The notes beneath the pieces are model-generated. The model did no database searches. It was not told the origin of the DNA and saw only the letters and a list, made by a program, of their open reading frames with translations. From Raillietiella orientalis (Eukaryota): a stretch of 64,000 bases of DNA. Below, piece by piece: positions 25,345-64,000 of the stretch. The position numbers were made by a program, and so were the translations under genes. Location of the stretch: contig JAYWIR010000002.1 in the NCBI GenBank assembly GCA_036172245.1, positions 806,001 through 870,000 on the forward strand, read 5' to 3'. Within the stretch, counting starts at the first letter, position 1. Every line of letters starts with the position of its first letter.

Positions 25345-26679
25345 CTGAAAAAGTGATTGGCGCGATGGGATTCCCGAGCAGCTTTTTCCATCCTTTCGCC
25401 CTTCAAGAACACTTGAGGGGGAAGGACGCAGCCTGAGGCACTGGAGACAGCAAACCGACGGATCTGGTGGAGATCAGAGCTCATCCTGCCAATTGGCTTA
25501 CGTCTGTACGAGAGAGCGGAGGAGATGACCCGTATGCTTCCATATTCTGATCAAAATACTGGTAAGCGTGTTCACTTTCTTCGGCGTGACGGGCAACCAG
25601 GCGGCATGCAGAGAGGTTCAGGAAAAATGCTTCGGCTGTCCGGATGGAGAGAGACCTCTTGAGGTGCCCGTTGATGAGAATCCGCCACAACCAAACTCAG
25701 TTCCTTCGGCCACGTGTCCTCAACACGCACTGTCATGTAAGAAAAAAGCACATTGGGGATCCGCGCTTTCTGTATAAAGCATACCTCCTGGGACGCGCGA
25801 CCATGCATGCGCGTCGCCCATCTTCGGTGGTCACGCAGTTCATTCCTGTCGCGGACAGTGAGCTCCTTGGTTCTCACAAGAGTCATCTCCAGCTACCAGC
25901 ACTGCCCTAAACCTTTTTCGAGAACGACATGGTCAGTAAACCTAGGTCGCTCCTGGAAGGGAAAGGGTAGTCTGCATGAAGGCACCAATGCACGTGATAC
26001 CCGCGACGAGTCCTCCAGTGGTGGGAAATCGGAGGGCACTCTGATGAAAGTGGCACCTTGCCCTTCTTGGAAACGCTGCGAGGTGAATGCCCTTTGGGGC
26101 TCAAAATCCGGGTCTTCCTCAAGCCTTCCTCAATCATCAAGCCTTCCAGAAAGCACAAAGGACTTCAGTGAAGCATGCAAAATCGAACCTACCAAAGGCA
26201 TGAACAAGTGAATTGACGATTCCCTTGAGTGTAGAGAATCTTCTCCCGAAAAAAAATGGAAGGTACTGGCTTATGTATGTGTATTGGTGTGTGTATGCGT
26301 GTGTGTTTTTTCTCTTTTCCTCCAAACTGGCCCGGCAGGACCAAATTTCATTGTTTGTTCTGAGCCAATGAGCAGTACGATTATGCGAAGTTCCTCCGCG
26401 TCGAAATACGACAATTATGTGGAAGAATAACGTCTTCTCGTCTTCAGGGAACAGGAGGATCCCTGTTCCGTTTTTTTTCCCCCTCTCGCTCTGCGCGGGA
26501 GCTCGCCGCTGCGAAGGCAATCGACTGTTTCGGTTTCTGCGGTCCGCAGCGAGATACTCGGCAATTGAGGCTGCATCAGGGCGGGGAGCGTAGCCGGGAC
26601 GCAAGAGAGGGAGGCGGGAAAAACCGGGAACATTCGTGGATGGAACCTTCCTCCCTTCGCCATTCTGGTTCGACGAATT

Positions 26680-26680
26680 C

Positions 26681-26736
<56 letters not shown>

Positions 26737-26745
26737 TTTTTTTTT
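26680..26745 (+). repeat. Compound microsatellite (CTGT)n(CT)n(GT)n(T)n
   Basis: Directly visible. Confidence 0.9.
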
Positions 26746-27228
26746 CTTGTTCTTTTCTTTCTTTTACCATTTTAGAGAAAAAGTTGGCTCTGTTCGCTGT
26801 CACGCGCGAGGGAGCGGAGGTCCCCCGTCCCTTGAAGACAAGGAGAAGGTGCCGGGAAGAGCAGGTTCCGTTCTGGCACGGGGCGACGCCCCCGCAGCTC
26901 CAAGCCATTTCGCCCGCCCGAAAGGTCGCGAGACTCGACCCACCTTGCCATGTGGGTCTCGAGAGGGCACCCTGCGGACACGGCTGACGCGAGCGGAAGA
27001 GTGTTCTGGAAATGACCAGAACGCTCCTCCGCCCGGATCTCCCGCGATCTCCGAACAGCAGGAGTTCAGGATGCGCGCACTTGTTTGCTTTTCCTGCCTC
27101 TTCGAAATGATCCGCATGCTGAGAACCTATTCTTTGAGAGGATGGACCAAGAACCGATCCCCGAGGGTGGCAAAGCCGCTCGAGGGCCGGGAGGATTCCC
27201 TCGCGATCAAAACAGTCCGCGGGCGGCG

Positions 27229-27245
27229 TGCGCGCGCGCGCGCTC

Positions 27246-27313
<68 letters not shown>
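27229..27313 (+). repeat. Compound microsatellite (GC)n-(GA)n
   Basis: Directly visible. Confidence 0.95.
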
Positions 27314-27319
<6 letters not shown>

Positions 27320-30300
27320 TGAACCTGAGACCTGTGAGGTGGGAGGCGCCACCCCGAAAGACGCATGCGCGTCACTACGAAGGGGGGGAGGGGAGGAAAA
27401 AAAAAATTAGAGGAATCCGCTGCAGACAAATCTGACGAGGAGGAGGCGGAAAGCGCGCGCGCGGAAGCCAGAGCAAAGAGGAGGAGGGGAGAGAAGTGAA
27501 GAGGGGTGGGGGTGGGAAAGCGGAGAAGGATGGCTTCCGTCAGCGGGCTGCACTGCTCTTCTTTCGGCGCGCACGAGGGATGTGCTTTTCTCCCCCCCCT
27601 CTAAAAAAGGGAGAGCCCTTACTTACCGCCCCCCTCCCTCCACCCCTGGGAGGGCGTCCAGCTACGAAGGAGGAACATACGTGGACGATCTGAATCGGTG
27701 GAGGCAACCAAAGCGAGAATCCGACAGGGAGGACAGGTGAGCTCGGCTGCCCCCGTCTCGACCGGAGGATGTGCTGGGATGGAAGGGGAGAAAGGTGATG
27801 GCTAACGTCATGATCAAGGAGAATCATCGTCGGACGAAATTGGTGCTCGCACGCTCCCCCGGACGACGCCACCGGAGACGGTGGCATCTGATTCTGGAGG
27901 AGCTGTACCAGGCTTGCAGGACGGGGAGGAAGGGCTGTCGCATCACCCGCGGACAGTCCCCTTCTTTCTTTCATCTTCATCAGCGACGGGCGCTGGCGTT
28001 CTCTTCCGCGTCTCGCCATCGTTCTGACTGGAACGATTCCGGGAGGGAGTGCATCAGGGAGCGAAACTGTTTCGGGATGGCCGCGGAGGAAGCACCGACG
28101 GGAAAGGGGGACTCCCAGAGTGAAAGGAGGAAGGCGGGAACGCTCGGGATGACCGTGCGCGGCGGGGAGAAGGGTTAGAGACCCCGGAAGCCCGAGCACC
28201 GTGAAAGCAGGGAGTCGTCGTCGCCGCCATCTGGACGGACGCGTTTCAACCGTCCACTTGGGAAGGAGGGATCCGCGCGCCCTCTAGCGCACGGAAGCGC
28301 AAGCAGGCTGCTACGCTCCTGGTGCGGAGTGCGCGTTCTCCGTGAGACACTCGTGCGCTGTTATCCTTCGGAGGTCGGACCAGAGCGGGTCGGACTCGTG
28401 CCTGCAGAGCGGGTTGTCGGGCTGACCCGAGGCTGCGGTGGATATGCCTGCAGCGTCCCGGGCAATGAGGTTTCCCGAGAAGGGAACCGGGTGGGGAGTT
28501 CCTACCTAAGTATTCCCCCCCCCCCTCATGATAGTCCTCCAGAGAGGGGAGATTTGCCTGCCGTTGCTGTGCAGACCGAATGACGCCCCCCCTTGGAACG
28601 ACGAAAAGGGAGACAAAGAAAGGAAGAACGCAAAAGAGGAAGGAGAGTGAGACTTGCTCCACGGGATGCCTAATGCTGCTGCCATCTGATTGGCCTCTGC
28701 AGAAGGAAAGAAAAAAAAAGTCGGCGGAAAGAAAATTTCGTGAAGCACTGTCTGCTGTCCGTGGAAGCGGAACGCTCAAGGAATCATGGTCCCTGGAAAT
28801 GAAGTAACGTGCGGAGGACGCGCATGTGGGAAGGCAAAAAGTGCCCTCCAATCAGGAAGATGGAAGGAAGCGGCGCGCTGTAGATCAGCTGTGGCACGCC
28901 ATCAACCGGTCCTTATGAGGACTCATCTGTGCGCCTTCACTGAGGCACCGAAAGGAGGATCCCTTCGGTGCCACTGAGCGACTGAGTCTCGATCCTTGCT
29001 TCAGACGAGATCGCAGACTCCTCAGCTCCAAGTGATCAAAAGTAGCGCGCTCCTTTTCCTTCCCGGGTGACCTCGTTCTAGTTGACGCTCACCCTTCCCG
29101 GCTTATCGCAACCTCCAGAGTCGAAAACACAACTGCTGTCACTGTGATCTTCCCTCGTAGCGAGCGAGCCACAACCAGTCTCTCCCATGGATCGGAGAAA
29201 CAGTATGCAGAAGCGTACGCAACAGTGCTCTTGCAAGGAAAGGGTAGCTTTTAGATGCGCTTCATACACACCAGCGCTTCATGGGAACTCGAACTGAGGT
29301 CGGAGGCCACTGGTCATTCTCGCTCCGCAAGGACGAATAAGGTTCTCGCGGAGGAAGCGGAGGTGTTAGATCTCGGCAGATCTTTCCGGATCCGCATGCG
29401 AAACTAGGATGCGGTCCCGTGGTAGGTGGGAAGAAGAAAGGCCCGATCAAGCCATCCCTCCTCCGCCAGGGCAAGCCCGGACCAGGTCAGCATGCCCCCT
29501 TCGAAACTGGACAGCCGTCCTCACACCGGCGGCGCCTTCCGGGAGCGCCAGTTTCACCCGGTGATATTTCTTCATCGTGAAACGACAGAGTTCCTGACTC
29601 TGAAAGATCTTTCGTCCTTCGTGATGCAAGGCACTCTGCTGTGGATGATCTCCAAACAATCCATCGGATGCGCATAGAACTTGCATCTTTGAGTGCCACC
29701 GCCATCCACCATCCGGGACGGAAAACTTGTGAGCCTTCAAGGGAACAGATCCGTCCGTCATAGGATTCTCTCGAGCTGAAAGCAGCGAAACTTGTCTCCT
29801 ATCACCTCATGGACATCCGTTTGGTGGACCAGTGGGCACGATGGGAGGACTTCACTCCGAGAAGAGTTATCCACACATGGCATCCGTACGCCACCTGCAT
29901 CGAGAGGTATTTGTTTATACACCATGGGGTATCTTTAAGGGCTTCATCCTTTCTTGCATGCTTCCATTCGTTTATTTGATCTGAGCGCCGTGATTCTCAA
30001 TGCAATGTAGCAAATGAGCCTCCATCTACGGAGGATACCCGCAGGTAGGAACTTCCCATTCGGCTCCCTTCTCGGAAAGCCTCGCTGCCGGGAGCGCTGA
30101 GGGCAGACCTACTACAGCCCCGGATCACGTGGTTGAGTGCTTCCATGGAGGCACGGCACACAGGCAGCCACGTTCTTTCATCATCCTGCCGACGCCTCCG
30201 AACTTTCACGTTCGGGAGATGCGGCATTTCAGCTCATCCGTTCTCAAAGCAACTCGTGAGTCTCGTCTTTGTTGACCTGGTATCGGATGTCCCCGAGGTC

Positions 30301-38701: not shown

Positions 38702-41700
38702 CTGAAAAGAGTCTCTCTTGGATGGCCTTACTGGCTATGGGGGCTAGAAAGGAGCAGGGAACCCCCTCCTTCTCCTTTCCCGCGGGAATTCTCTCCTCAG
38801 TTTCCCATCGTCATTATCTGACAGCTCTGACCACGGGATGTGAGCTCTAGGAAGGGAGGGGAAGCGACTGGCTCGCTTTGCCCTCAAAAGCAGCCTCCCC
38901 CCAGGCGAGGAATCCGTTTCCACATTCTACGGGCCGGAACGCGATAGTTCCCCCTCCTTCCTTCACGCCCTCCCTTCTAATAAAGCAGCAAAGCTGTCGC
39001 GGACATGCCCCGAGATCCTGAGGGTATTATCCTCTCCCCCTTTTCTCCGTTTCCCCACCCTCAGTGAGGGAGTGAGGATCCCTTCCTCTAGGATGAGGGA
39101 CTGAGCCGCGTCCCGAGTGTCGCAGCTACAGTGCTCTGTCGTCCCTACCGGGAGGATCGGCCACTGGACTGCGTCGGCAAGCGCGTGGGGAAATCCGGCA
39201 GGAAAAGGCTCGGTGGCGGATCTCCAGGTGCTGCTGCTGCTGCCGACCTCCAGGGCAGCTTGAGGAACGGTTGACCAGGTCGGATGATACGCGCGGTCGA
39301 ACGGAAGGCATCCGTTTCCTCGCTTTTGGCATGCCCCAAGTGGGAGACAGTCGGGAAAGGATTCCGGGGGACTCTCTCGACGAGCTCGCGGGAGTTCTCC
39401 CGGATGCCACCCCTTGGATCAGCCGTGTTCCACATGGGACGGTGGCGCTATCCCTCGGGAACTGTGTTGTGGAAATCTCCACTTCTTCGGGGATCCGAGT
39501 CCACTCCGACGTTCTGGTCAACGATGATCCCTCGGTCGACCCTAGTTACCTTTGCGTTCATCCTTGGACCCTCCCCGCGTCCCGAGAGAAAAGGAGAGAG
39601 GAAAGTTGAGCGTTCCACGTGCAATCTCCGTACCATTCAGTAAGAGACCGGTCGTCGGACGTTCAGGGGGACCGAGGGGAACGCGCGTGATACCGTGCTA
39701 CTTTCTCTCTTCCCTCTCCCCACCACCTTCCCCTCCATTTCCCGAGAGGGGAAGAACAAAAAGAAAAAAACTTACTTGGAGGACCCTCTTGGGCAGATCC
39801 GTATTCGTGGAGAGCTGCTTGAGGTCCTTGGCATCGGGGTTATGGTTCTCGGCGAAGAACAGCTTCAGCATCTTCAGCTGGCTGTGCTTGAAGGAAGTCC
39901 GCATCCTCTTGGGGCGTGCGGGAGGCTCCTGGTGGCCACCTGCGCAGTCCGAATCGGGGAGGAGATCTGGGGAGAGCGCGACAGGATCGCATGCAGTGAG
40001 AGAGAAGGAACGAGGCAGGGTCGAGCGGGAAGAGAGGGAGGGGGGAGGAGAGGGAACGATACGGAGACGCCCGGAAGCGGAAGCATCGCCGCTGCCAACT
40101 GCTTGAATGCGTGGCGACTCGCCGGGGGATCTGCGGGAGAGAATCCCGTGGCGCGTGAGACACGCACCCGCCGCTCCCACAATGTGGGAGCTGTGAGCGC
40201 TCGCGGGGCACTTCCGTGAGGCACTTTCGCAGGAGAGGAGGAAGAGGGACGCTCGTGGAAAAACGGGGAGTTCCCTTTCAGATGGTAATCGGGTACCGAC
40301 GACTCACCGGGAGGCAGGGAATGGGAAGGGAGGGGGAAGAGACGACTGGGTGGAGGGGTGCGACTATCGTGGTCGGCCTCCCGCAGGAACTAAGCCCAAC
40401 CACTCTCCGTGCCCCCCCTCCCCCCCCCCCCCATCACACAGCAACCCGCACCTCCTTGGTTTGGGAAGTGCCGGAAGGTAAGGAACGGCTTCTTCCTCCC
40501 AACGCAAGGTGGAGAGTCCTAAGGGAGGAAAGCGGCGAGAGGATCACATCCTTCCATTTCTCCCCCCACCTTCAGTCCGGATACGTGAGCAGCTTTCCTG
40601 GTTCCCCCTTCCGCAGGGGAGCTCGCCGTCGTTGCCTGTAGGGAGGAGAGGCAAGCGAGCGTCAGCTTTCCCCTCCCTTTCCCCATCCACGGGACGGAGG
40701 CGGGCTCTGCTGCGCCGTCAGAGCTAGGTCCAGCCGGAGGAATGGACAGCAAACTGCTGCAGGAAGCAGGATGCTTGCATCCCTGGGGGAGAGCGAAGGA
40801 ACCGGAAGGGTCACGGACCCTTCCTCTAGTTGGGAAGAGGACTTCCCGCAGAATTCCTAGAGAGGAGGACGCAGTGTCTGGAAGGAGGGATGAAGGGGCT
40901 GCCCTTCCGGAAGCTCGCGGAGATGCCTGAAGGAATTCGGGAGTGACGGGAACTCCGGGAGCTGTCCGGCCGCGGCATTCCCTGGAAAAGCCCCGCGCGG
41001 CGGCGGCGGCGGCACGCCTTTCCCGGAGTAAGGGGAAGGGGATCCAGATGGGAGGAGGCGTGGGGAGCTCGCAGGGCAGGGAGGCGAGGCCGTTTCCGCG
41101 ATCGTTGCCATGCCATCTGCTTCCAGGATGCCAGGAGTCCCGTTCCTTCCTTTTCGGAGGAAGAGGGGGAAAGAGAAAAAAACCGCACCGTTTGTTGCGG
41201 GAGGCGGGAGGGCGGTTCCTTTCATTGTGCTGAGAGGGGAGGGGGTAGAGGGGTAGCCGGCCGGCCGGGCACCTGGGGCTGGCTGCGAGCGTCGCCGTCG
41301 GGTGCGGTTGGCGCCTGACCGCCGCCAGCAGTCGCGCGCGTGCGGGTCGGAGAGACGACCCGTCTCTGCCGCGGGGAGCCCTGCAACCAGCTCGCAGGGC
41401 GGCTGCTGGGGCTGCAGAGCAGGGAACGGGAGGAAGAGACGCGATCCCTTTCTCCAGTCCCTCCTTCCTCCGATAGAGGGCGCAGATCAGTATCTCTTTA
41501 TGGGGCGCGCGCGAGAGGAAGGGTTTCTCCTCCTCTGACTTTTTCCCTCCCTTTCCCCCCTCCTCCCCTGCCCGAGGTCCGAATGAGCTCCTTACCTTCG
41601 TGGGGGTGCAGCCTGAGCTCGGCGCCCTTCTTCCTCCTCGACCTGTTCCTCGCGTAAAGAGCGCAGTGGTCGGCGCCAACGACGCTCGCCGCCGCCGCCT

Positions 41701-44700
41701 CCTCGTAGCCGCCTCTGCAGCAGGCGTTCCCTCCGTGGCACGGGTGGCTCTCCAGAACCGGCCGGGCGGAAGCTCGGGACTCCCGCGTCGGGGAGCGGAG
41801 GAAGGGAACACCCAGGAGAGGGGTGAGAGGAGGAGGAGGAGGAAGGGGAGGAGGAGGAGGCGGGGGAGGGACCGCCGCCCCGCCTCCGTCTCCAGCTCCC
41901 TCCGCAAGCCTGTAGTGCTGGCTGCAGTAGATAGTGCTGCCGCGCAGCCCGAAGTGCTCGCCCTTGAGGAAGGGGCGGAGGCAAATGGCGCATGTGAAGC
42001 ACTGCACGTGGTACACGGAGTCGCGCACCTCCATGACGTACTCGTTGGTGCAGATTCCGACGCCGCAGCGCACGCACCTCCGGATGCCGAACAGCCTGAA
42101 AGCAGAGCGTGGGGAGAGGAGGTGGCGATCTCTCTCGAACAACATCAGCACCTGCGTCCGCCGGGGCGCGATCCTCGCCCACCGCCTCCCCTCTACGGCG
42201 AGCTCTCCTCCTCTGAGGTGGTCCGGGACCCCAGGATTCGTGCCCTCTCCCCCGCGTTGCCTCGCACGCCTGTGCGCGGTCGCTATTTTGATCCAGTGCC
42301 AGGAGGTCGCCACTACCCCCGGAGCTGCTCTTCCCGGCTGGCCGCAGCCGGGAGCGGCGACAACAACAGCGCGCGCGCGCGCGCCAGCACGAGAGGGAGA
42401 GGGAGACGAAAAACATCCGGGGATGGAAGGGGAGGAGAGGGGGGAGACAAACTGGGAGGGAGGGAGCGGGCAGATTGAAAGATCCACCCGCGCTCTAGAC
42501 CGCCGCGAAGGCAGCACCCTGAGGAGGAGGGGAAGAGCCCCTGGCGGCTGCAATGCCATCGCGCACGTGCTCCCGCACATCTCGCCCGCTCGAGGGGAAA
42601 GGGCACGATCGCCTCCGCGGATCCTGCGCATCGAACACCACCTCCGCTGCAGCAGGGTGGCCTCGGAAGCAGGGAAGGCGCGGCGCTCCCTTTGCGCGCC
42701 TGCCTCCCGGACCTCCTGCAAACCGAAGGGTGCCGTTCCGGAAGGCCACCCGCCCCTTCTCCGCGGGCAGGCAGATATCCGTCCGACGACCGGCGCCACT
42801 CGGGGAAAGGAAGGGGTAGGATGGGCTGCGAACGAGTCACGTGACGCCACCTCTGCCGTAGAGACCTTCGCGGCCTCTCAGAGGGAGAAAGAGGGACGAC
42901 GGGGAAGGGAAGGGAAGGGAGGTCGTCTCCGGACTGCGGCCTCGCCGAGGGCTCGGGGCAAGGTGATGGCTCCCCCTTCCCTTCCCCGGAAGACGGAAGG
43001 AGGAGGGAGCAAACGGTAGCAAAGCGGAGGGGGAGGAAGCGAGGAAAGAGGAAAAGGAAATCGCCGGTGGCGGAAGAGGACGGGGCGGTTCGGGAAGCGG
43101 AAGAAGCGGTGCGCGCGCGCGATGGGTTCGAAGAGAGAAGGCGGAGGATGGGAAAGGAGGCGAGAAGAGAGGAAACAGAGAAGAAGATGCTGCCGATCCG
43201 CATCTTCCCAGCCTAACTCCCCTTCTCTCTCTCTCTCTCTCTCTCTCTATCCTTCCCTCCTCCTCCTCCTTTTTCTCCCGTGATTGATTTACGCCGCGTC
43301 CGCGCCGGCACCGCACCCCGCGCGAGCGCGGAGTCGCCGCCGCGCGCGGTTCCGCGGTGCCGCGCGCGCGCGCAGGCGCCGTCGCTCCGCCCGGGCTCGG
43401 GGCCCCGCGTCAGTTTCCGGATGAAATGTGCGCCCGGTCTTCGGGATCTCCCGATCCGCGCGCGCTGCCGGAGCCATTATCGCGCTCATCTCGGGCTGTA
43501 AATTACGGAAGCTGCTCGACGGGAAAAGGTCCGTTCTTCCCGGCGGGAAAAGCCCCGCGGAACAGGCGCTCCGCATGTCCGGACGTCTCGCTCGTGATTT
43601 AGGGTGAAATACAAATCACCGGGAGACGAGAGGACGCGGGAGCTGTCCGTCCGCGATCATCGCCGCAGCCTCCAGGAGCTCCTGCCGGCGCGACCGGCGC
43701 TCGGGTGTCGCCGCCTCTCCCCCTCCGCTGGAGAGGCCGAAGGAGGGCGGAGGGTGAGATGGAGGGAGGGAGGGAAGAGGAACGCCGGGAAGCAACGCGC
43801 AGCGGCGGGGCCGCCTATTGCGTTCTACTCTCCCCCGTACCGCGGACACCGGCCCGGGCATCTTCCCGCTCGCTCCAGGGGTTCGAAGGACGCAGCTCCG
43901 GCATGCCGGGGCGGTGGGACGCGACGCGCTCCTTGCATCCCGGACGCGCACCTACGAGAGAGCCCCGAGGGCATCCCTTGCTGCCATTGTTATCGTTGTT
44001 GTCGTCGTCCCTGCTGCTTTGCTGCTTTCCGACAGGACAGCCACGCCGCTCCCGGTCGGGTTTCGCCTTTCCTTTTCTTCCAGAAGCGGCGGGAAAGGAA
44101 AAAAGGCAGAAAAAAAAAACCTCGGGAGGGCGGGCGACGAGCTGCGAAACAGTGGAGGATCCCTGCTTTCCTCCCTCCCTCCCTCCCTCCGTCCTCCTCC
44201 TCCTCCTCTTCCGACTACAAACGGGTTTCGTCCTTGTATCGGGTTGCTCCGCGGAACCCTGGGAGACCACAGCTGCTGGGCTTCTGGGCTCGGCGCGCGG
44301 AAGAAACAAAACGGAGATCGTTTTCCCGCGCGTTGCGCGGCCCGGCGGCGCGCGGGTAACGCTATACGCTTGGGGAGACGGGCGGTGCCGCCGCGCGTTC
44401 CCGCTGAGGAACACGGGTCTCCCCACGCGGCCGACGGAGGAACCAGGCGCACTTGATAAATGGGAGGGAAGTCCTAGAAAAATTGAGCGACCTTGCGGAA
44501 GCTTCCGAGATCCATCTCGGGAGGAGGAGGAGGAGCCCTCGTCGGGCGGGGCACCCTTTGCTTTCCCGTCGGGGGAAGGTCGCCCGCGCCTCTTCCTCCC
44601 GCGGCGCGAGGGACGTGCAGCGGCGGCCTCGGCGGCTTCGCTGAAGAAGGATGTCTTCCTGGATACGCGCGCGCCCTCAGGGAGTCTCTAAGACCGAAGT

Positions 44701-56536: not shown

Positions 56537-59519
56537 GTCCATCCGGATGGACATCTTCGGGAGGAACAGGTGCTTGTAGCTCCTCTCGGAGCGTAAGAGT
56601 TCGGATCTTCGGGTGTCGCTGCTGTGCTCCTCTTGATCAGAAGAGAGAAGCGAGGGGGTCATGGAAACGCAAGAGCTCCACTTCTTTGGAGAACGAGGGG
56701 GAAACGGGGGGGGGGGCGCTACAACGCAGAGAGCTCCAGCTGCTCGCGGACGGTTTCCCATATCGCGGAAGAACGAAATTTCAGGAATCCTCGAAACGGG
56801 AGAACAAAAACGCAACCCCGAGGGATATGCCTCCGGGCCAAGTGTCGCCGAGGACCGAAAACGAAGGGTGTGACGCTCCCATCCCCTCCGAAGCTCTGAA
56901 AAAGCGAGATGCCCGAACGGAACCGTGCGAAAGCTCCTCGTGCAGTGCGCCCGACCGCCTTCGAAAACGGTGCGCGACCCCATCCTTGTGCCCGAAGGTG
57001 CGGGTGGTGTCACGGAAAGGCACACCCTCCCATCCGGCACCGATGAAGCCAAGCCAAGGCCTCTTGGAACTTCCGGAGCACAGCAGGCCGAGCCGCAAGC
57101 ATGTCAAGATAGCGGCAAGCGCTCATCCGACAAACTGGCAGCGGTGACGACGGAAAACAACAGCGTGCCACTGCCTCCACCCACTCTTCCCGTCCGGAGG
57201 GTCGTGGATTGATAACGGCGTCGCAAGAACGCTCGCGCCTGGAGCAAAATCAGTTTCCTTCCTCCTACGAAGAAGACACAGGCGCTTGGAGATCCACCTC
57301 TTGAGTTCTTCCGCATGTCTTGCGGTTGTTTTTCACGCATGCCACTTGCGCAGGTTCACGCTACGGCGCGCGAGGGCCGAACCTGCCTCAGATGTCATCG
57401 ACTCGATTGCCTCCGCAGATCTGGAGCATCGAGCTTCTGAGCATTCCTGGTGGCCAAATGGGCGGAATAAGACGCATCTTCCGTCTGAAAAACCGTCTAA
57501 GATGAAAAGCTGAAGCAGCTCGTGCCCCCCCTGTCGACGTGTTTCGGAATTCGCATGGAACGCGGAGGCACGTTTCGTGGTGTATACGCAGCGTGTTCCC
57601 CTCTCTTCTCCACCCCCCTTCCACAAAAGAGAGACCCCTTCGTTCCTTCTTAGTCTCCCCTCCCTAACTTATGCGGTTGCCAGCTGTCTCATTTGGAAAA
57701 AGATCGGTGTCAGGTCGGGTCATCAGGAAATTCTTCGGTGCAGCCAGTGCGAGAGATGGTGCACATCACATTCCTTCGATCTCATTGCCAGCTGAGTGCT
57801 CATCCCAGGTTGCGTGATCTTCGACCTTGCCTCAGGGAGGAAAAGGACCTCTTTCTCCAAAGGAGAAGAACCCTTCCGAGGACCGGAAAGCGAGCGCTGC
57901 GGCCGCCGCGCGCTCCCGCTTTCCCAAGCCGCGGTGAGTCAGGAACGAGCCACTGCTGTCGGTGGCCGGCTCTCGTACCTTTGTTTTGCTCCAGGGCATC
58001 GATCGCATTGCATGTGCCGAGGAATCATCAACAAACGCCTCTCCGCTTCCGAGGCCGCAGAGATCACCAAGATAAGGGGGGGCAAAAAAGCAGAAAAGAA
58101 TACGCAACAAACCACCTACCCGTTCCTTCCCGAGCGGTGAGTCCTCTCAGAGTTTCCCTTAGAAACGGGCCATAAAAGGGACCAGTGAATGCTCTGCAAT
58201 CTCCCTCCCCTCTGTTATTTCCATCGTTAGGATCAGGCGCAAAGACGACTTACATAATATGACCTGTGTGAAGCACTAAACAAATGACGTTTTTATTTTA
58301 TTTCCCCCTTCGGTTCTTCTGCATTCTTTGTATTTGTCGTTTGCTTACAATCGCTCGGATACTTTTGCAACCTCTGCTCTTTATTATTCCAGCCCTTCCC
58401 TCTTTCTTCTCTTTTATTATCCTGCAATAATTGTGGTCCAATTCAGAGTTCGATAGATCATGCGGGATGTCCTCATTCAGTTGGATGGTACTTGGGCTTC
58501 AATCAGGTGCCGCTAAACACGAGAGACGAGGTGTTTATCGAAGGCGGTTTTTTCCGCTCTCTCCCAAATACGCTCCCCTCCTGCTCCATGGAAACGCTGA
58601 GCACACCATGAGGAATTCCGTGAAGTGGGAAATTTTTTTACTATTTTTCAGGACGTCACTCGGATTTCCCTCGGGGAGGAGAGCGCAGCGAACCATCCGA
58701 GCTACCTCTCGTCCCGTCTTTTAGAGCAACCGATCCCGGAGGGTGGCAGCACAGTGGGGCATGGAGGCGGCACCCAGCGCTCTGGAGAGTTTTTCGAAGC
58801 CGTCAGCACGGGGCGATCCCGAACTCGGGCCTCTTCCTCCCTCCAGAGAGGCCGGGTCTCTCAGCCGGACAAGAAGTCCAGGGAGAGGGAAGGTAGCGGC
58901 CGTGCTCCACCCCTTTCGGACGAACGCGTCAAGAATCGAGGCGAATTCGGGGACCCGAGTTTGCCCCGCCAGGAGCGCTCGGTGCGACCCGAACGAAGAC
59001 TTCTCTGCCTTCGGCGGTGAAACTTGGCAGCGCACCTGACGAGCACAACAGTGAGCCCCCTCTGTTGGATCCGAAGTTGCGTCCTATGGGGCAAGGTCTC
59101 CCCGTTGGATGCAACTCCCATTTCCCTTGACTCATTGCTTCCCGAACGAAGGCCTCTCCTCGTTCCTGCACTCGCAGCTCTTGAACACCATTATGATTGT
59201 GTGTGTGTGTGTTTTAACAAAAAAAGACCGACAACCTCACGTTACGATGGAAATCCTTCTGGGTCCTTCTGTTTTCGCTTCTTTCCTTCCAGCCTTCTTT
59301 TTTTTTTTTTCTTTCCGGGTTTTCTTTTAGTTCGGTTCTCTGAGGACCGTTCGCCGAGGAACTCACGAAGCTCTTTAAGACCGTTCCACGCCACCCGACG
59401 GCGCATGTTAGCTCTTCAAGTTAGCGAATACCCTGATAGATGAACCATGGGAGCCACTCCTTGTTTTACTCCTCTGAAGAGAAACCCGAAAGGACGCTTC
59501 CCAATTTCCATGAAAGGCG

Positions 59520-60685
59520 CCTCCTCGACGGGAGCAGCGCGCTTCTGACACTCTGGAGATGCATGATCAACCAGCACCATGCATGGTACGCGATGGAGGA
59601 GCCCCACCTCCGAGGGGGGTGAACAGCTTCATTTTCACCACCAGAGGGGAACCCCGAAGGGAACCGTCTCCTTGGTTACTGGACGTACCCTGGAGGGCCG
59701 ATTCCCAATCCTGGTCGGTCAACGAGGACATCCGGCTTCCACCAGTGCTGCACTCCCTTAGGGAACACGCGGGCAGCAGACTTACGGCTATATGGGGAGA
59801 TACTGTGCAAATCTGCAGAAGGAGAAAAGGACTGGGCGAGTGGACGATGGGCCAGCTCACTGACGCTGTGATCCCGAGTGCTTGACCTCATGGACTTTTG
59901 CTCTGGGGAGTTTGCTAGTGGGCATTCTGGAAGAAGATCTGAAGCGGTGCTCATAAACACCCGCACGCTCCCCTTAAAGTGGCAGAAGTCAGCATTGAGG
60001 CTGCTGCACTGGGGTCTCCCGTGCAACGCCCGCCGGCATCACTGTATACAGGGGGAGAGGTGGACCCAAATCGTGCTAGGTGCGGGCAGGGGGAATCCCT
60101 CCTGCACCTCCTAGTGGATTGTGTTGCCCTCCTGCCCCTTTGGGGACGTTTTTCTGCAGATCCCCGAGGGTAACCCCAGAGACCTGAAACGCCTCTTCCT
60201 GCACGACGCCCTCACGCCAGCAGCATGCCTAGCAGCACTTTGCTGCCCACGCGGCGAGACCGTGGCTGCATGGAGCAACTCCAGAGGAGGCCAGGACTAC
60301 TGGGACGCCGTCTATTTTGCTGTCCCCCCCTTCACGAGGATAGCGTCGAGATGATCCCATCCGGGAGCTTCGGAACAGGAACTTGCCGACCTCCTTACAA
60401 GGATGCAGAGGACACCCTCCAGCACACAGAGATTCCTTCCACTTTGATCTTAGCTAAAAGGCCAAGAAGCGAGGCCAGGATTCCTTCCCGAACCCCTCCA
60501 GTTTTTTGACTGCATGTGTTTTTCGTTTTATTTTTTTCCTCTTTTGTTTGTCTCCCCTTCCCCTGTGCTGCCGAGGCGAGCCCTGCTGGCCTGCGGGCCA
60601 GTTCCCGGCAGGTTTCTTCTCGTAGTTATAAGTGACGTGGCAGGATCAAACGTCCTGCCACAGACGCGTTGGTTTTATAAATAAA
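59520..60685 (+). mobile_element. 5'-truncated, frameshifted L1/Tx1-like LINE 3' end, left copy (5' boundary approximate)
   Basis: zf-RVT-like motifs LPLKWQKSALRLLHWGLPCNAR and (R)ARCGQGESLLHLLVDC...W across frameshifts, then a T-rich 3'UTR ending TTTTATAAATAAA. Confidence 0.65.
60440..60472 (-). pseudogene. 3'-truncated U2 snRNA fragment (about nt 2-34), left copy
   Basis: Minus strand reads TCGCTTCTTGGCCTTTTAGCTAAGATCAAAGTG, matching the U2 5' end with about 2 substitutions. Flanked by direct repeat GATTCCTTCC at 60431-60440 and 60479-60488. Confidence 0.85.
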
Positions 60686-60853
60686 CGCCCCAGCGTGACT
60701 GGTTGCCAATCAACCCAAAGTTTCTAAGGCTAACCAGAGTCGTCCTGCAAACCCAGGATGCACCCATTTCTCGCCGCGGATCCTTCCCCGGAGGGGATGA
60801 GAACGCGCAACGCCTGGTGCCTCCACGCTCAAGACCGCAGCCACACGACCCGC
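60686..60853 (-). mobile_element. tRNA-derived SINE-like repeat, diverged copy
   Basis: Reverse complement GCGGGTCGTGTGGCTGCGGTCT..CCAGGCGTTGCGCGTTCTCATCCC..GGAAGGA..CGAGAAATGGG..GCAGGACG aligns colinearly with 62970-63157, with many substitutions and indels. Confidence 0.55.
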
Positions 60854-62968
60854 GCTGGCGGTCGTGTGGCAGCGGTCTGAGCTCACCGCGTCAGAGCAAG
60901 CGTTCCCATCTATCCTCGAAGAAGGAATACTCGAGTCGTGCCTTCTCGCCGTTTCGGTCGGAGAAGGAACCGCTTTGAAAACCTCGGGTTCAGGAGGACC
61001 GTGAACCGCTCCGAACGTTCTTCACGGGCAGCTCAGAAGAACAGAGCTGTTCCACTTTCCTCTCTGTTGCATCCGAAGAAGCGCCCCAGGACAAACGAGC
61101 GTACATGACATAGAAAAAGGAAAATAAAGTGTCCGTCTTCCACAAATGCATGCACCGCCTACTGCTATATGTGGTGACGCCTCCAAGGATTCCAAGGTAT
61201 ACGCAAGCGAATGGACGCCTTCGAATTCCAGAATCGGGGCACTTGTTTGGGGAAACGAGGAAGGGAAAGAAAGGTAGGGGGGCGGAGAGAACGCACCATT
61301 CTTGCCGCTATATCGCAACAGCAAGAGGCGAACAGAACGAACCCTTTTCCCATCAAGGTCACGTGCTTCCGACTGACGAAAAGAAGCCGTACGGGTCGCG
61401 TGCCGCCGGTTGCGCTTGAAGGATCCAGCCAGAAGGTCGAATCCGTGCAATTTCGGGTCTTGTCTTACGACGCATCCCCTCCGACGCTTTGGTTTGCCGG
61501 AAATCTCTCCCGCCCCGCTTTGTCAGCTCTGGCGATTTCAACAAAGCAGGGCCTTCCTCGGACTCGCTTCCCTTCAGAGAGGTCGCGAGCCAGATTCAGA
61601 AAGAGATGCACTGGTGGCAGCACCCCACGGTCTCCTCGTTCCGAGCCCTCGCATCTGGCGACCATGCACTTCGGAATCCCCGAATTCCTAAGGCGCGACG
61701 GAAGACGCCACCGGAATGCGCCCGGTAGTTCCCTGAAAACGTCCCCCCCCCTCCCCCCCACCTGGTCAGACGAATCGGGGGAGACATTTATGTGCCAGTC
61801 TCATCCAGAAACCGCGTCCCGGGCCCGTGTAAATCTTGAGGTTGACGCAATACGTTCAGGGAGAGCCGACGAAGCCTGTAAAAGTCCAAGATCGCGAGGC
61901 GCTCCAGCCGGTTATCGCGATGAACCACCCCCGCACAGTGCCAGGGGCTTTTCCTGATACCCCCGGGCGCGCGCACGAACGGCATTCCGCCGCAGAAGTG
62001 GCGGGGGATGGAGCGAGGAACCTCAGCAGAGGATCCCTCACTGTCCACCGCCGATGATCGTCATCGCACCGTCTTGACGGGACGGCAGTTAAATTTTTAA
62101 TGGTCGTCGAAAAACAGCGCGAGGCAGAGAATTCTTTTCCGACGGACTACCTACGAAGATCTCTTCCTTGGACGGAGCGTTGGGGTCTTTAGAGAGTGAT
62201 GGAACAAATGCGACTTTTGCACCATAAAGGGAAGCGGACTTTCAATAAAGAGATGAAAACCTCTTGCAGAAGGAAAAAAAAAAAGGGGGGGGAAGAAAAA
62301 AATTCGAATCTTTTGTAAGATAAAAATAAAATCGGGAATCTTAGACCCGACCTATCTGTTGAAAAAGAGGATCGGACTGATGCCCTTTTCCGAGACGCCC
62401 GAGCATGTTTACCTCCAGCATGGTGCGACGATCAGTAGTGTACGCGTAAAATATGTACTGATCCCTTTGAAGAGGTTCTTCATCTCGAGAATCAGTTGAA
62501 CTGGAATCCGACGCCGGATGACGGAAAGAATGGACTTAAAATAAAAAAAGAGCCTTTGAAAAGCTGCTGTGCTGCTGCATGTGTGTGTGTGTGTGTGTTT
62601 TTAAAAAGTGCATAAATTTTCATCACGTGTTGGCATGTGCTCCGAGCACTCTCCCCCGTTTGAGACGGAATGCGTGCATCCGATGCTGGTGATTTCCAGC
62701 GATGAAATTCGTCGCCAAGGATGCATCTGAAAAAGCAATCCATTCCAGAATGAGATCAAGAGATGTTTGACGATGGCAACAGAGAGAGAGAGAGAAGGAG
62801 AGAGATCTCTTGGAACTCTGAATGATGCGCGGGATAAATTAATGGCATCTCATCGTGCGACAAGCGACAATAAACATTGCTTGCGTCTGAAGCTTCTAGC
62901 CGTCGTTTATTGTTATGTCTTATTTGCTGCGAGGTTAACGGGACAGAATGGCGTTCAAGGTCCGCGAT

Positions 62969-63157
62969 GGCGGCCGTGTGGCCGAGGTCTCCGAGCGCGG
63001 TACCAGGTGTTGCGGGTTCCAATCCCACTCGAGGAAGGACCCACTACGAGAAATGGGCGCGTCGTGGGTTTCGAGTTCTCTTCCAGGCAGGACGGCGCTG
63101 GCTGGCCTAGAGGCTTCGAGGGCAGCACTGCTTGGCACGCCTGGTCACGCCGGGGCG
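62969..63157 (+). mobile_element. tRNA-derived SINE-like repeat
   Basis: A-box-like TGGCCGAG (62979) and B-box-like GGTTCCAATCC (63015), no complete cloverleaf. A homologous diverged copy lies at 60686-60853. Confidence 0.6.
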
Positions 63158-64000
63158 TTTATTTATAAAACCAACGCGTCTGTGGCAGGACGTTTGATCC
63201 TGCCACGTCACTTATAACTACGAGAAGAAACCTGCCGGGAACTGGCCCGCAGGCCAGCAGGGCTCGCCTCGGCAGCACAGGGGAAGGGGAGACAAACAAA
63301 AGAGGAAAAAAATAAAACGAAAAACACATGCAGTCAAAAAACTGGAGGGGTTCGGGAAGGAATCCTGGCCTCGCTTCTTGGCCTTTTAGCTAAGATCAAA
63401 GTGGAAGGAATCTCTGTGTGCTGGAGGGTGTCCTCTGCATCCTTGTAAGGAGGTCGGCAAGTTCCTGTTCCGAAGCTCCCGGATGGGATCATCTCGACGC
63501 TATCCTCGTGAAGGGGGGGACAGCAAAATAGACGGCGTCCCAGTAGTCCTGGCCTCCTCTGGAGTTGCTCCATGCAGCCACGGTCTCGCCGCGTGGGCAG
63601 CAAAGTGCTGCTAGGCATGCTGCTGGCGTGAGGGCGTCGTGCAGGAAGAGGCGTTTCAGGTCTCTGGGGTTACCCTCGGGGATCTGCAGAAAAACGTCCC
63701 CAAAGGGGCAGGAGGGCAACACAATCCACTAGGAGGTGCAGGAGGGATTCCCCCTGCCCGCACCTAGCACGATTTGGGTCCACCTCTCCCCCTGTATACA
63801 GTGATGCCGGCGGGCGTTGCACGGGAGACCCCAGTGCAGCAGCCTCAATGCTGACTTCTGCCACTTTAAGGGGAGCGTGCGGGTGTTTATGAGCACCGCT
63901 TCAGATCTTCTTCCAGAATGCCCACTAGCAAACTCCCCAGAGCAAAAGTCCATGAGGTCAAGCACTCGGGATCACAGCGTCAGTGAGCTGGCCCATCGTC
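63158..64000 (-). mobile_element. L1/Tx1-like LINE 3' end, right copy (runs off the window)
   Basis: Reverse complement of 59843-60685. Mirrored coordinates sum to 123843 throughout and the mirrored ORF translations are identical. Confidence 0.65.
63371..63403 (+). pseudogene. 3'-truncated U2 snRNA fragment (about nt 2-34), right copy
   Basis: TCGCTTCTTGGCCTTTTAGCTAAGATCAAAGTG flanked by GGAAGGAATC at 63355-63364 and 63403-63412. Confidence 0.85.

Follow-up and report, generated by a model that had tools for sequence, protein, structure and literature searches.

The right-hand end of the 64-kb window (the whole stretch of DNA analyzed, 64,000 nt) contains two inverted LINE-like copies, each joined at its A-rich 3′ end to a copy of a short tRNA-like repeat. 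The left LINE-like copy (59440 to 60685, plus strand) is 5′ truncated and ORF defective. The 5′ boundary can be placed only between about 59312 and 59520, and the 3′ end is the A-rich sequence ..TTTTATAAATAAA. A 10-bp stem with a 5-nt loop (60637 to 60661, plus strand; centroid fold) ends 24 nt before this terminus; the 90-nt fold around the stem has a z score of −1.6, which is not significant alone. As originally predicted, the element is frameshifted: translations divide its open stretches over two frames, 4 stops interrupt the 305 codons of the best frame, and no open stretch is longer than 123 codons.

A frame at 59943 to 60173 (plus strand), which is out of frame with an upstream open stretch at 59872 to 60114, contains a C-x7-H-x4-C-like motif (..RCGQGESLLHLLVDC.., read by eye) and is a candidate for the C-terminal zinc-binding region of a non-LTR reverse transcriptase (RT). 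In a language-model comparison, the nearest named clusters for this frame were "RT zinc-binding domain" clusters (PF13966 zf-RVT in 40% of members; score, 0.93), and the leads for an overlapping frame were also zf-RVT clusters (0.90 and 0.88). These leads share 110 to 160 of 256 features, with no HMM or sequence match alongside. Pfam yielded 0 relevant matches and no RT domain for eight ORF pieces of the LINE-like copy, a word-index protein search with the zinc-motif frame yielded 192 candidates with none at an E value of ≤1, and a PDB search yielded 0 matches for one frame and seven irrelevant weak matches (E ≥ 0.17) for the other. A single phmmer match among 1.84 billion representatives, to a repeat protein over 15 residues, was rejected as spurious. 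Neither an RT nor an endonuclease is present within the 64-kb window.

The LINE-like arms are members of an interspersed multicopy repeat family with an A-rich 3′ end. In one public run (X1), 288 contigs aligned to them at a likeness of at least 80%, mostly 80 to 95%, and covered 59334 to 60669 and 63175 to 64000. Two contigs were at least 99% alike, 4 were 95 to 99% alike, 139 were 90 to 95% alike, and 143 were below 90%. X1 was the only public run found, has a word share of 0.06, and is possibly from another organism; its contigs demonstrate presence, not absence, and a comparison of ages based on them is weak evidence. Cover was 0 to 1.4 on the bins at 60670 to 61003 and 62841 to 63174 and was also next to none on the spacer. 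An exact contig of 258 nt matches a part that the arms share and does not discriminate between them. Among the X1 loose ends listed (6 of 154), none fell at a junction. The other 59 kb of the window hold no further LINE-like copies, and a metagenome pattern scan with the 23-nt LINE tail gave 0 matches.

Within the left copy, a match to U2 snRNA nt 1 to 33 (RF00004) lies at 60440 to 60473 on the minus strand, antisense to the LINE-like frame, with its mirror copy at 63370 to 63403 (plus strand) in the right arm. The match is weak in both arms (Rfam, 23.4 bits against a gathering score of 46; E, 0.11). The antisense fragment is bracketed by 10-nt direct repeats, GATTCCTTCC, at 60431 to 60440 and 60479 to 60488; this bracketed piece of 38 nt is present in both arms. 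One X1 contig omits 116 nt that contain the fragment. In these features, the U2 fragment resembles a secondary, private-looking insertion into a resident LINE-like copy.

Three local copies of a short tRNA-like repeat

The left short-repeat copy, SL (60686 to 60853, minus strand), lies tail to tail with the LINE-like 3′ end, and the right copy, SR, occupies 62962 to 63158 (plus strand). SR contains an A-box-like word, TGGCCGAGGTC, at 62979 to 62989 and a B-box-like word, GGTTCCAATCC, at 63015 to 63025. Both were assigned by eye against the consensus motifs; SL retains the B-box-like word in degraded form. A third, partial copy of about 78 nt, S3 (60850 to 60927, plus strand), scored 53 and 47 in alignments for which shuffles peaked at 38 and 36 (0/200 each). 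SL and S3 stand head to head, 9 nt apart, and create an 18-bp near-perfect palindrome at 60833 to 60877; by blastn, 60827 to 60882 is self-inverted with 80.7% identity over 57 nt. An Rfam miRNA match at this position is spurious, produced by the palindrome. The three copies share a common 5′ end and fall within 2.3 kb, with 0 copies in the remaining 61 kb of the window.

The short repeat had been labeled a tRNA-SINE, an identity that remains unproven. ARAGORN found 0 tRNA genes in 64 kb, Rfam gave no tRNA match at an E value of ≤10 in 5 kb or in the 221-nt short-repeat copy alone, and all three copies are local. A metagenome pattern scan with a degenerate short-repeat motif gave 0 matches, and a protein search for other junction copies, using an ORF across SR and the junction, gave six candidates and no match. 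An A-rich run at 59296 to 59330 on the minus strand (T13 on the plus strand, read directly) may, to judge from its sequence and position, be the short repeat's own A-tail, in which case the LINE-like copy would lie inside the short repeat. A target of the Mariner-N4_AMi type was considered for the short repeat and rejected for now on the CpG level of the window (observed/expected, 0.92, not CpG depleted), the shared 5′ end, and the A- and B-box-like words. Vertebrate genomes, unlike this window, are CpG depleted.

Perfect identity of the inverted arms ends within 6 nt of the LINE-like terminus

A repeat search of the window found one inverted pair, at 59843 to 60699 (left arm, plus strand) and 63144 to 64000 (right arm, minus strand), with arms of 857 nt and a spacer of 2444 nt; TRF found no tandem arrays at a score of ≥200. 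The left arm consists of LINE-like sequence to 60685 followed by 14 nt of short repeat. In the right arm, the LINE-like sense strand is the minus strand, and the arm reaches the window end, so that its length is at least 857 nt. The arms are complementary at 856 of 857 positions (99.883% over 857 nt; blastn), and a perfect inverted repeat this long cannot have arisen by chance. Up to the A-rich end ..ATAAATAAA (60685 in the left arm and 63158 in the right), the LINE-like part is identical at 843 of 843 positions, in agreement with the original observation that the arms show no difference through the LINE tail. The arms differ internally only at 60692 (left A, right G), 7 nt past the terminus as first reported, and the next mismatch in ungapped register is at 60700.

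Past the junction, the arms are only ~76% identical, with indels, over about 165 to 190 nt. A blastn alignment of 60749 to 60850 with 63071 to 62972 gave 75.7% identity over 103 columns (E, 4e-14), and the MAFFT alignment of SL with SR contains indels of 2, 6, and 15 nt. Their local alignment score was 132, against 24.3 ± 4.0 for shuffles, none of which scored that high (0/200). The homology ends near 60853 and 62970, at the tRNA-like heads, as had been claimed. The description of the spacer beyond as unrelated sequence also held: by blastn, it has no homology elsewhere in the window apart from the short-repeat copies and two low-complexity matches. The alignment agrees, too, that an identical LINE-like tail, running antisense, abuts two diverged short repeats at one and the same homologous position. 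SL and SR agree at 13 of the 14 short-repeat nucleotides next to the junction.

Three alternative explanations are considered first. An old inverted duplication (palindrome) of the LINE and short repeat, with arms kept alike by gene conversion and inner ends that escaped it, would account for arms around a unique spacer, and the SL/S3 pair shows older inverted events at the locus. However, identity falls from 100% to about 76%, with three indels, within a few nucleotides and exactly at the element terminus, whereas erosion of conversion should give a gradient at an arbitrary place; we regard such a palindrome as very improbable. A composite SINE-LINE unit, offered in the original prediction as one possibility, or a 3′ transduction would make the antisense short repeat part of the mobile unit and would explain why order and orientation are the same in both copies. 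Mobilization as one RNA predicts equal divergence on both sides of the junction, in contrast to the 843/843 identity on one side and about 76% on the other, and this explanation, contradicted by the step in identity, is scarcely credible.

The third alternative is an assembly or library artifact, in which an inverted chimeric join placed the reverse complement of the left LINE beside SR. Chimeras of this kind can come from a template switch in amplified DNA or from a mis-join at a repeat. The 843/843 identity, the extension of the arm to the window end, and the position of the junction at a 13/14-nt microhomology, like that of in vitro template switches, would all suit an artifact. The 2.4-kb spacer, by contrast, is unique and nonpalindromic, unlike that of fold-back reads, and the junction falls on the homologous nucleotide of a real diverged repeat. 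An artifact seems distinctly improbable, if less so than the two preceding explanations.

Possible target-specific insertion or local DNA copy

A fourth alternative is that a young, trans-mobilized, ORF-defective and possibly short nonautonomous element of the L1/Tx1 type, sequence specific and antisense, hit SL and SR independently at one site of a tRNA-like SINE family. It would explain a same-nucleotide junction in two copies about 24% diverged and a step in identity at an A-rich terminus preceded by a 10-bp hairpin. The zf-RVT language-model lead points to a domain of L1/Tx1-type LINEs, and the A-rich run at 59296 to 59330 (minus strand) would suit a SINE split by the insertion. Precedents, insertions of Tx1-Mar and SINEU into Mariner-N4_AMi and of Tx1 into Tx1D, are described in PMC4494074.

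Several features of the locus argue against targeting. Only two junctions are seen, adjoining and inverted. The original prediction treated the two copies as independent; with only 2.4 kb between them and opposite orientations, the junctions do not count as separate observations. No independent copy from the window, X1, or the two metagenome scans supports the inferred Tx1-like element that targets a SINE. The copy is frameshifted, contains stops, has no target-site duplication (TSD), and carries a secondary U2 insertion, and not one base separates the two tails. Of the 288 related X1 contigs, just 2 are at least 99% alike, which is weak evidence. The SINE status of the target is unproven, and no target copy lies outside the locus within the window. 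We hold independent targeted hits to be the less probable account, with a real chance of being correct nonetheless; the particular claim that an ORF-defective L1/Tx1-type element was mobilized in trans and entered a tRNA-like SINE, in antisense orientation and at a single exact position, in a genome without CpG depletion appears unlikely.

The original failure to find a convincing TSD at the left 5′ end was borne out. No word of 5 to 12 nt starting at 60686 recurs in 59250 to 59700 (0/8 lengths), and no words of ≥8 nt are shared between 59250 to 59600 and 60680 to 60730. A young insertion made by target-primed reverse transcription (TPRT) is expected to have a perfect TSD, if any was made. The missing TSD is not decisive against targeting, because Tx1 insertions with a TSD, with a truncation, or with no target change are all reported in PMC4494074.

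Taken as a whole, local DNA copying explains the junctions at least as well as a retrotransposon aimed at a repeat. A recent local DNA copy primed by homology is the best reading of the identical arms, one to which we give an even chance. What the sequence shows directly is the structure, the step in identity, the defects common to the arms, and the clustering of short-repeat copies at one locus. Both arms carry every defect of a dead copy (frame break and stops), and a source whose ORF2 tail is broken should not give rise to new insertions efficiently. The bracketed U2 fragment is common to both arms, and the left copy has no TSD, even of 5 nt. Both visible LINE-like copies lie 2.4 kb apart, inverted, and alone in the window, at a locus where inverted events have happened before (SL and S3, head to head), and the 13/14 match of SL with SR before the junction is a usable pairing site. 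The X1 relatives are mostly old compared with this copy, a weak point in favor of local copying.

Other observations count against a local copy. The edge of perfect identity lies ≤6 nt from what looks like a genuine retroelement 3′ end, A rich and preceded by a hairpin, and an identity edge at the terminus is exactly what two insertions would give. Pairing would have to extend to the very end of the homology, and homologous pairing is ill served by ~76% identity with indels. PMC4494074 supplies a precedent, in which Tx1 LINEs occupy the same site, antisense, in an old abundant transposon. The outer end of the right copy is past base 64000, where a LINE 5′ end and unique flank are both possible.

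We infer the copying mechanism, its left-to-right direction, and the age of the LINE copy as follows. The starting state would have been one old, 5′-truncated, ORF-defective L1/Tx1-type LINE, antisense in or at the end of SL, with the diverged SR 2.1 kb from SL in opposite orientation. Recently, in the course of break repair or restart of replication (SDSA/BIR type), a DNA 3′ end in SR would have annealed to the homologous SL, and synthesis from the SR end would have continued on the SL template into LINE sequence. Because synthesis would start at the end of the SR-SL homology, the new copy would join SR at the LINE-SL junction nucleotide. The copied LINE part would be identical because it is a young DNA copy, and SL and SR would retain their old divergence of about 24%.

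Discussion

If the targeting explanation were true, the locus would present a LINE with a SINE family as its chosen target and would add a new class of target to the Tx1-style "transposon-in-transposon" strategy, possibly outside the animals in which PMC4494074 places the clade. Such safe-haven integration aimed at a SINE would bear on how LINE endonucleases gain specificity and could offer a natural site-specific integrase-like tool. It would parallel the known Tx1 elements that target other transposons, as described in PMC4494074. Under the likelier reading of a local DNA copy, a diverged inverted-repeat pair can set off an inverted duplication nearby with a junction that passes for target-specific retrotransposition, which calls for caution when specificity is read from few copies.

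The closest published comparison concerns crocodilians. [quoted passage not shown] Like the system described there, our locus joins a retroelement tail, oppositely oriented and at a preferred site, to a repeat that is old, abundant, and diverged, with U2-derived sequence associated and TSDs often absent or altered. Unlike that system, in which the target is a DNA transposon, our locus presents two adjacent junctions. The U1 and U2 pieces in SINEU, as described there, are sense 5′ heads, whereas the U2 piece here runs antisense within the 3′ region between direct repeats; the LINE-like copy's U2 piece is thus not a SINEU-type sense 5′ snRNA head. Tx1L inserts into the Tx1D DNA transposon of Xenopus, and its encoded endonuclease has been shown to be specific (cited in PMC4494074). 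Our locus would be like Tx1L/Tx1D as a LINE whose target is another mobile element and is unlike it in having no endonuclease in the window.

The short repeat is like tRNA-derived SINEs in its length of about 170 to 190 nt to the junction, its plausibly spaced A- and B-box-like words, its common 5′ end, and a candidate A-tail beyond the LINE-like copy. It is unlike them in having no tRNA-finder match and no dispersed copies within the window.

Repeat-mediated inverted segmental duplication and template-switch repair provide a further comparison. Unlike in these processes, the junction here coincides with a retroelement terminus; the outer breakpoint lies beyond the window. Like their products, the locus has inverted arms that match perfectly, a spacer of unique sequence, and a junction located at microhomology in a prior inverted diverged pair.

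Structure of the inverted repeat

A repeat search found a single large inverted repeat in the region, 59843-60699 (left arm, plus strand) against 63144-64000 (right arm, minus strand), with a 2,444-nt spacer. The arms are complementary at 856/857 positions (99.883%, blastn), and the right arm runs up to the window end (base 64000), where it is cut. In the ungapped register, the first two mismatches lie at 60692 and 60700. The LINE-like sequence ends in an A-rich terminus (TTTTATAAATAAA) at 60685, mirrored at 63158; since the first mismatch lies beyond this end, the repeat part is identical at 843 of 843 positions. Past the A-rich end the arms are still homologous but old, with 75.7% identity over 103 columns (blastn) and three indels, of 2, 6 and 15 nt (MAFFT). 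The local alignment of this diverged flank scored 132, against 24.3 ± 4.0 for shuffled sequences (0/200 reached 132), and homology runs out near 60853 and 62970. The spacer showed no blastn homology to the rest of the window except for copies of a short repeat and two low-complexity matches. The original prediction had described the arms, tail ends and homology limits correctly to the nucleotide, as judged by blastn, MAFFT and ungapped comparison.

The step in identity bears on two explanations. A composite SINE-LINE unit, which had been offered as an alternative, or a 3′ transduction is contradicted by the unequal divergence on either side of the junction (843/843 versus ~76%), and its probability is close to negligible. 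An old palindrome kept by conversion fits poorly with a fall from 100% to ~76% within a few bases at the element end and is very improbable. A separate reading, an assembly or amplification chimera, is rather improbable.

Elsewhere in the window there are direct-repeat pairs at 24107-24406/25001-25300 (300 nt, 95% identity, spacing of 894 nt) and 55407-55512/56431-56536 (106 nt, 87% identity, spacing of 1,024 nt). Inverted-repeat pairs I2 to I10 in the repeat scan come from microsatellites at 26576-27406, which are long tracts of (GA)n and (GT)n.

The arms are copies of a LINE-like repeat

The arms are members of an interspersed repeat family. In X1, the one public sequencing run found with related contigs, 288 contigs aligned to 59334-60669 and 63175-64000 at a likeness of at least 80%: 2 at ≥99%, 4 at 95 to 99%, 139 at 90 to 95% and 143 below 90%. 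One 258-nt contig did not differ from 59745-60002.

Two frames on the left arm's plus strand are stop-poor, with 4 and 6 stops per ~305 codons (10.5 expected from composition). A C-x7-H-x4-C-like motif lies in the frame at 59943-60173, with arginine at the position expected for its first cysteine. This frame and the adjoining upstream open stretch (59872-60114) are in different reading frames. The copy is defective, carrying one or more frameshifts as well as stops in frame, and has a 10-bp hairpin whose end lies 24 nt upstream of its terminus. Language-model look-alikes of both frames were clusters that either bore the name "reverse transcriptase zinc-binding domain" or had PF13966 (zf-RVT) on 10 to 53% of members; the scores were 0.93, 0.90 and 0.88, with shared features under the level counted as strong. 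There were no matches in Pfam for eight ORF pieces, in a word-index protein search with the LINE-like frame or in the PDB with the LINE-like frames, and phmmer against 1.84 billion representatives returned only a spurious repeat protein. Neither a reverse transcriptase nor an endonuclease, on which a Tx1-like placement would have to rest, lies inside the window. The language-model leads, which found no confirmation by alignment, suggest that the arms are likely the 3′ part of an L1/Tx1-type LINE ORF2 with its 3′ UTR.

The CpG observed/expected ratio is 0.63 in the LINE-like copy (59440-60685) versus 0.92 in the whole window, which is not CpG depleted; window GC is 56%, with blocks reaching 67%. 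A separate ORF at 41498-42877 (minus strand) encodes a LIM domain (PF00412, E 5.5e-13; residues 268-322) followed by a proline-rich run. A word-index search found no close homologue of this ORF, so the lineage seems poorly sampled.

Both arms also share a match to U2 snRNA nt 1-33 (60473-60440, mirrored at 63370-63403), antisense to the coding frames and weak in Rfam (23.4 bits versus a gathering score of 46; E 0.11). The 38-nt piece that holds it sits between perfect 10-nt direct repeats (GATTCCTTCC) at 60431-60440 and 60479-60488, the whole spanning 60431-60488 (mirror, 63355-63412). The arrangement suggests that a 3′-truncated snRNA was retro-inserted here as a small secondary event that duplicated its target. 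One X1 contig is without 116 nt that take in this piece.

The short repeat at the junctions

The diverged flanks are copies of a short repeat, SL (60686-60853, minus strand) and SR (62962-63158, plus strand). A partial third copy, S3 (60850-60927, plus strand), shares their 5′ end and aligned with scores of 53 and 47, versus shuffle maxima of 38 and 36. SL and S3 stand head to head, 9 nt apart, with an 18-bp near-perfect palindrome at 60833-60877 (palindromic region, 60827-60882) that Rfam spuriously reports as a miRNA-like hairpin. The earlier label of tRNA-SINE is tentative. The copies have a common 5′ end, and SR contains words that by eye resemble pol III A- and B-box consensus motifs. Against the label, ARAGORN found zero tRNAs in the 64-kb window, Rfam, run on 5 kb and on the isolated 221-nt copy, matched no tRNA at E ≤ 10, and all three copies are confined to a 2.3-kb stretch, the other 61 kb of the window holding none. 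A dispersed SINE family is plausible but hypothetical.

The left LINE-like copy is closely preceded by a T13 run (plus strand, 59296-59330), A-rich on the minus strand. This run could be the short repeat's own tail, in which case the LINE-like copy would sit inside the short repeat. X1 word depth was very high (1201.7) in the bin holding the run (59167-59333).

Local DNA copying versus targeted insertion

We consider recent DNA-level copying the most likely origin of the second arm and give it an even chance. A 3′ end in SR would pair with its inverted homologue SL (matching at 13/14 of the nucleotides next to the junction), and synthesis primed in SR would run on into the resident LINE copy. 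Since synthesis would start at the end of homology, the junctions would share a nucleotide without endonuclease specificity, SR and SL would stay at their old divergence, and the new arm would be identical. Copying would also explain why the frameshifts, stops and U2 insertion are common to both arms, why the two copies are neighboring and inverted, and why no target site duplication (TSD), not even of 5 nt, was found at the left LINE-like copy, where the original prediction had likewise seen no convincing one at the left 5′ end. The scarcity of near-identical X1 contigs (2/288 at ≥99%) is weak evidence in the same direction, and the model fits a locus with an older head-to-head event (SL/S3). 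Against copying, the identity edge falls within 6 nt of what appears to be a true element terminus, homeologous sequences only ~76% alike and interrupted by indels would pair poorly, and the right arm's outer end is outside the window.

The original prediction, a Tx1-like LINE targeting a tRNA-SINE family, would call for independent target-specific insertions into SL and SR, which we regard as unlikely. Such insertion has a precedent in the Tx1-Mar LINEs and SINEU of crocodilians, but specificity there is seen in hundreds of independent copies, while targeting here rests on two junctions 2.4 kb apart, and the source element would need to be ORF defective and mobilized in trans. That an ORF-defective L1/Tx1-type element was so mobilized, antisense at one nucleotide of a tRNA-like SINE, is doubtful. 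Metagenome scans with two patterns gave no match, nor did a protein search with the ORF spanning SR and the junction. The X1 contigs were uninformative on the junctions, and their sparse cover outside the arms carries no weight either way.

Comparison with known target-specific elements

Literature on Tx1, SINEs, targets and non-LTR elements, represented mostly by titles and abstract openings, held no SINE-specific LINE; LINEs described there target DNA transposons, LTR elements, snRNA genes and microsatellites. The crocodilian study describes Tx1-Mar LINEs and SINEU inserted in opposite orientation near position 240 of Mariner-N4_AMi, an old transposon, with TSD, truncation or an unchanged target all seen, as well as U1/U2-derived heads on some Tx1 families and Tx1D as the target of Xenopus Tx1 (PMC4494074). 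Under the copying model, the locus is unremarkable though instructive: a dead LINE fragment duplicated in inverted orientation, with repeats as the seed. Targeting, if real, would be one more case, or a variant, of the known target-specific LINE strategy.
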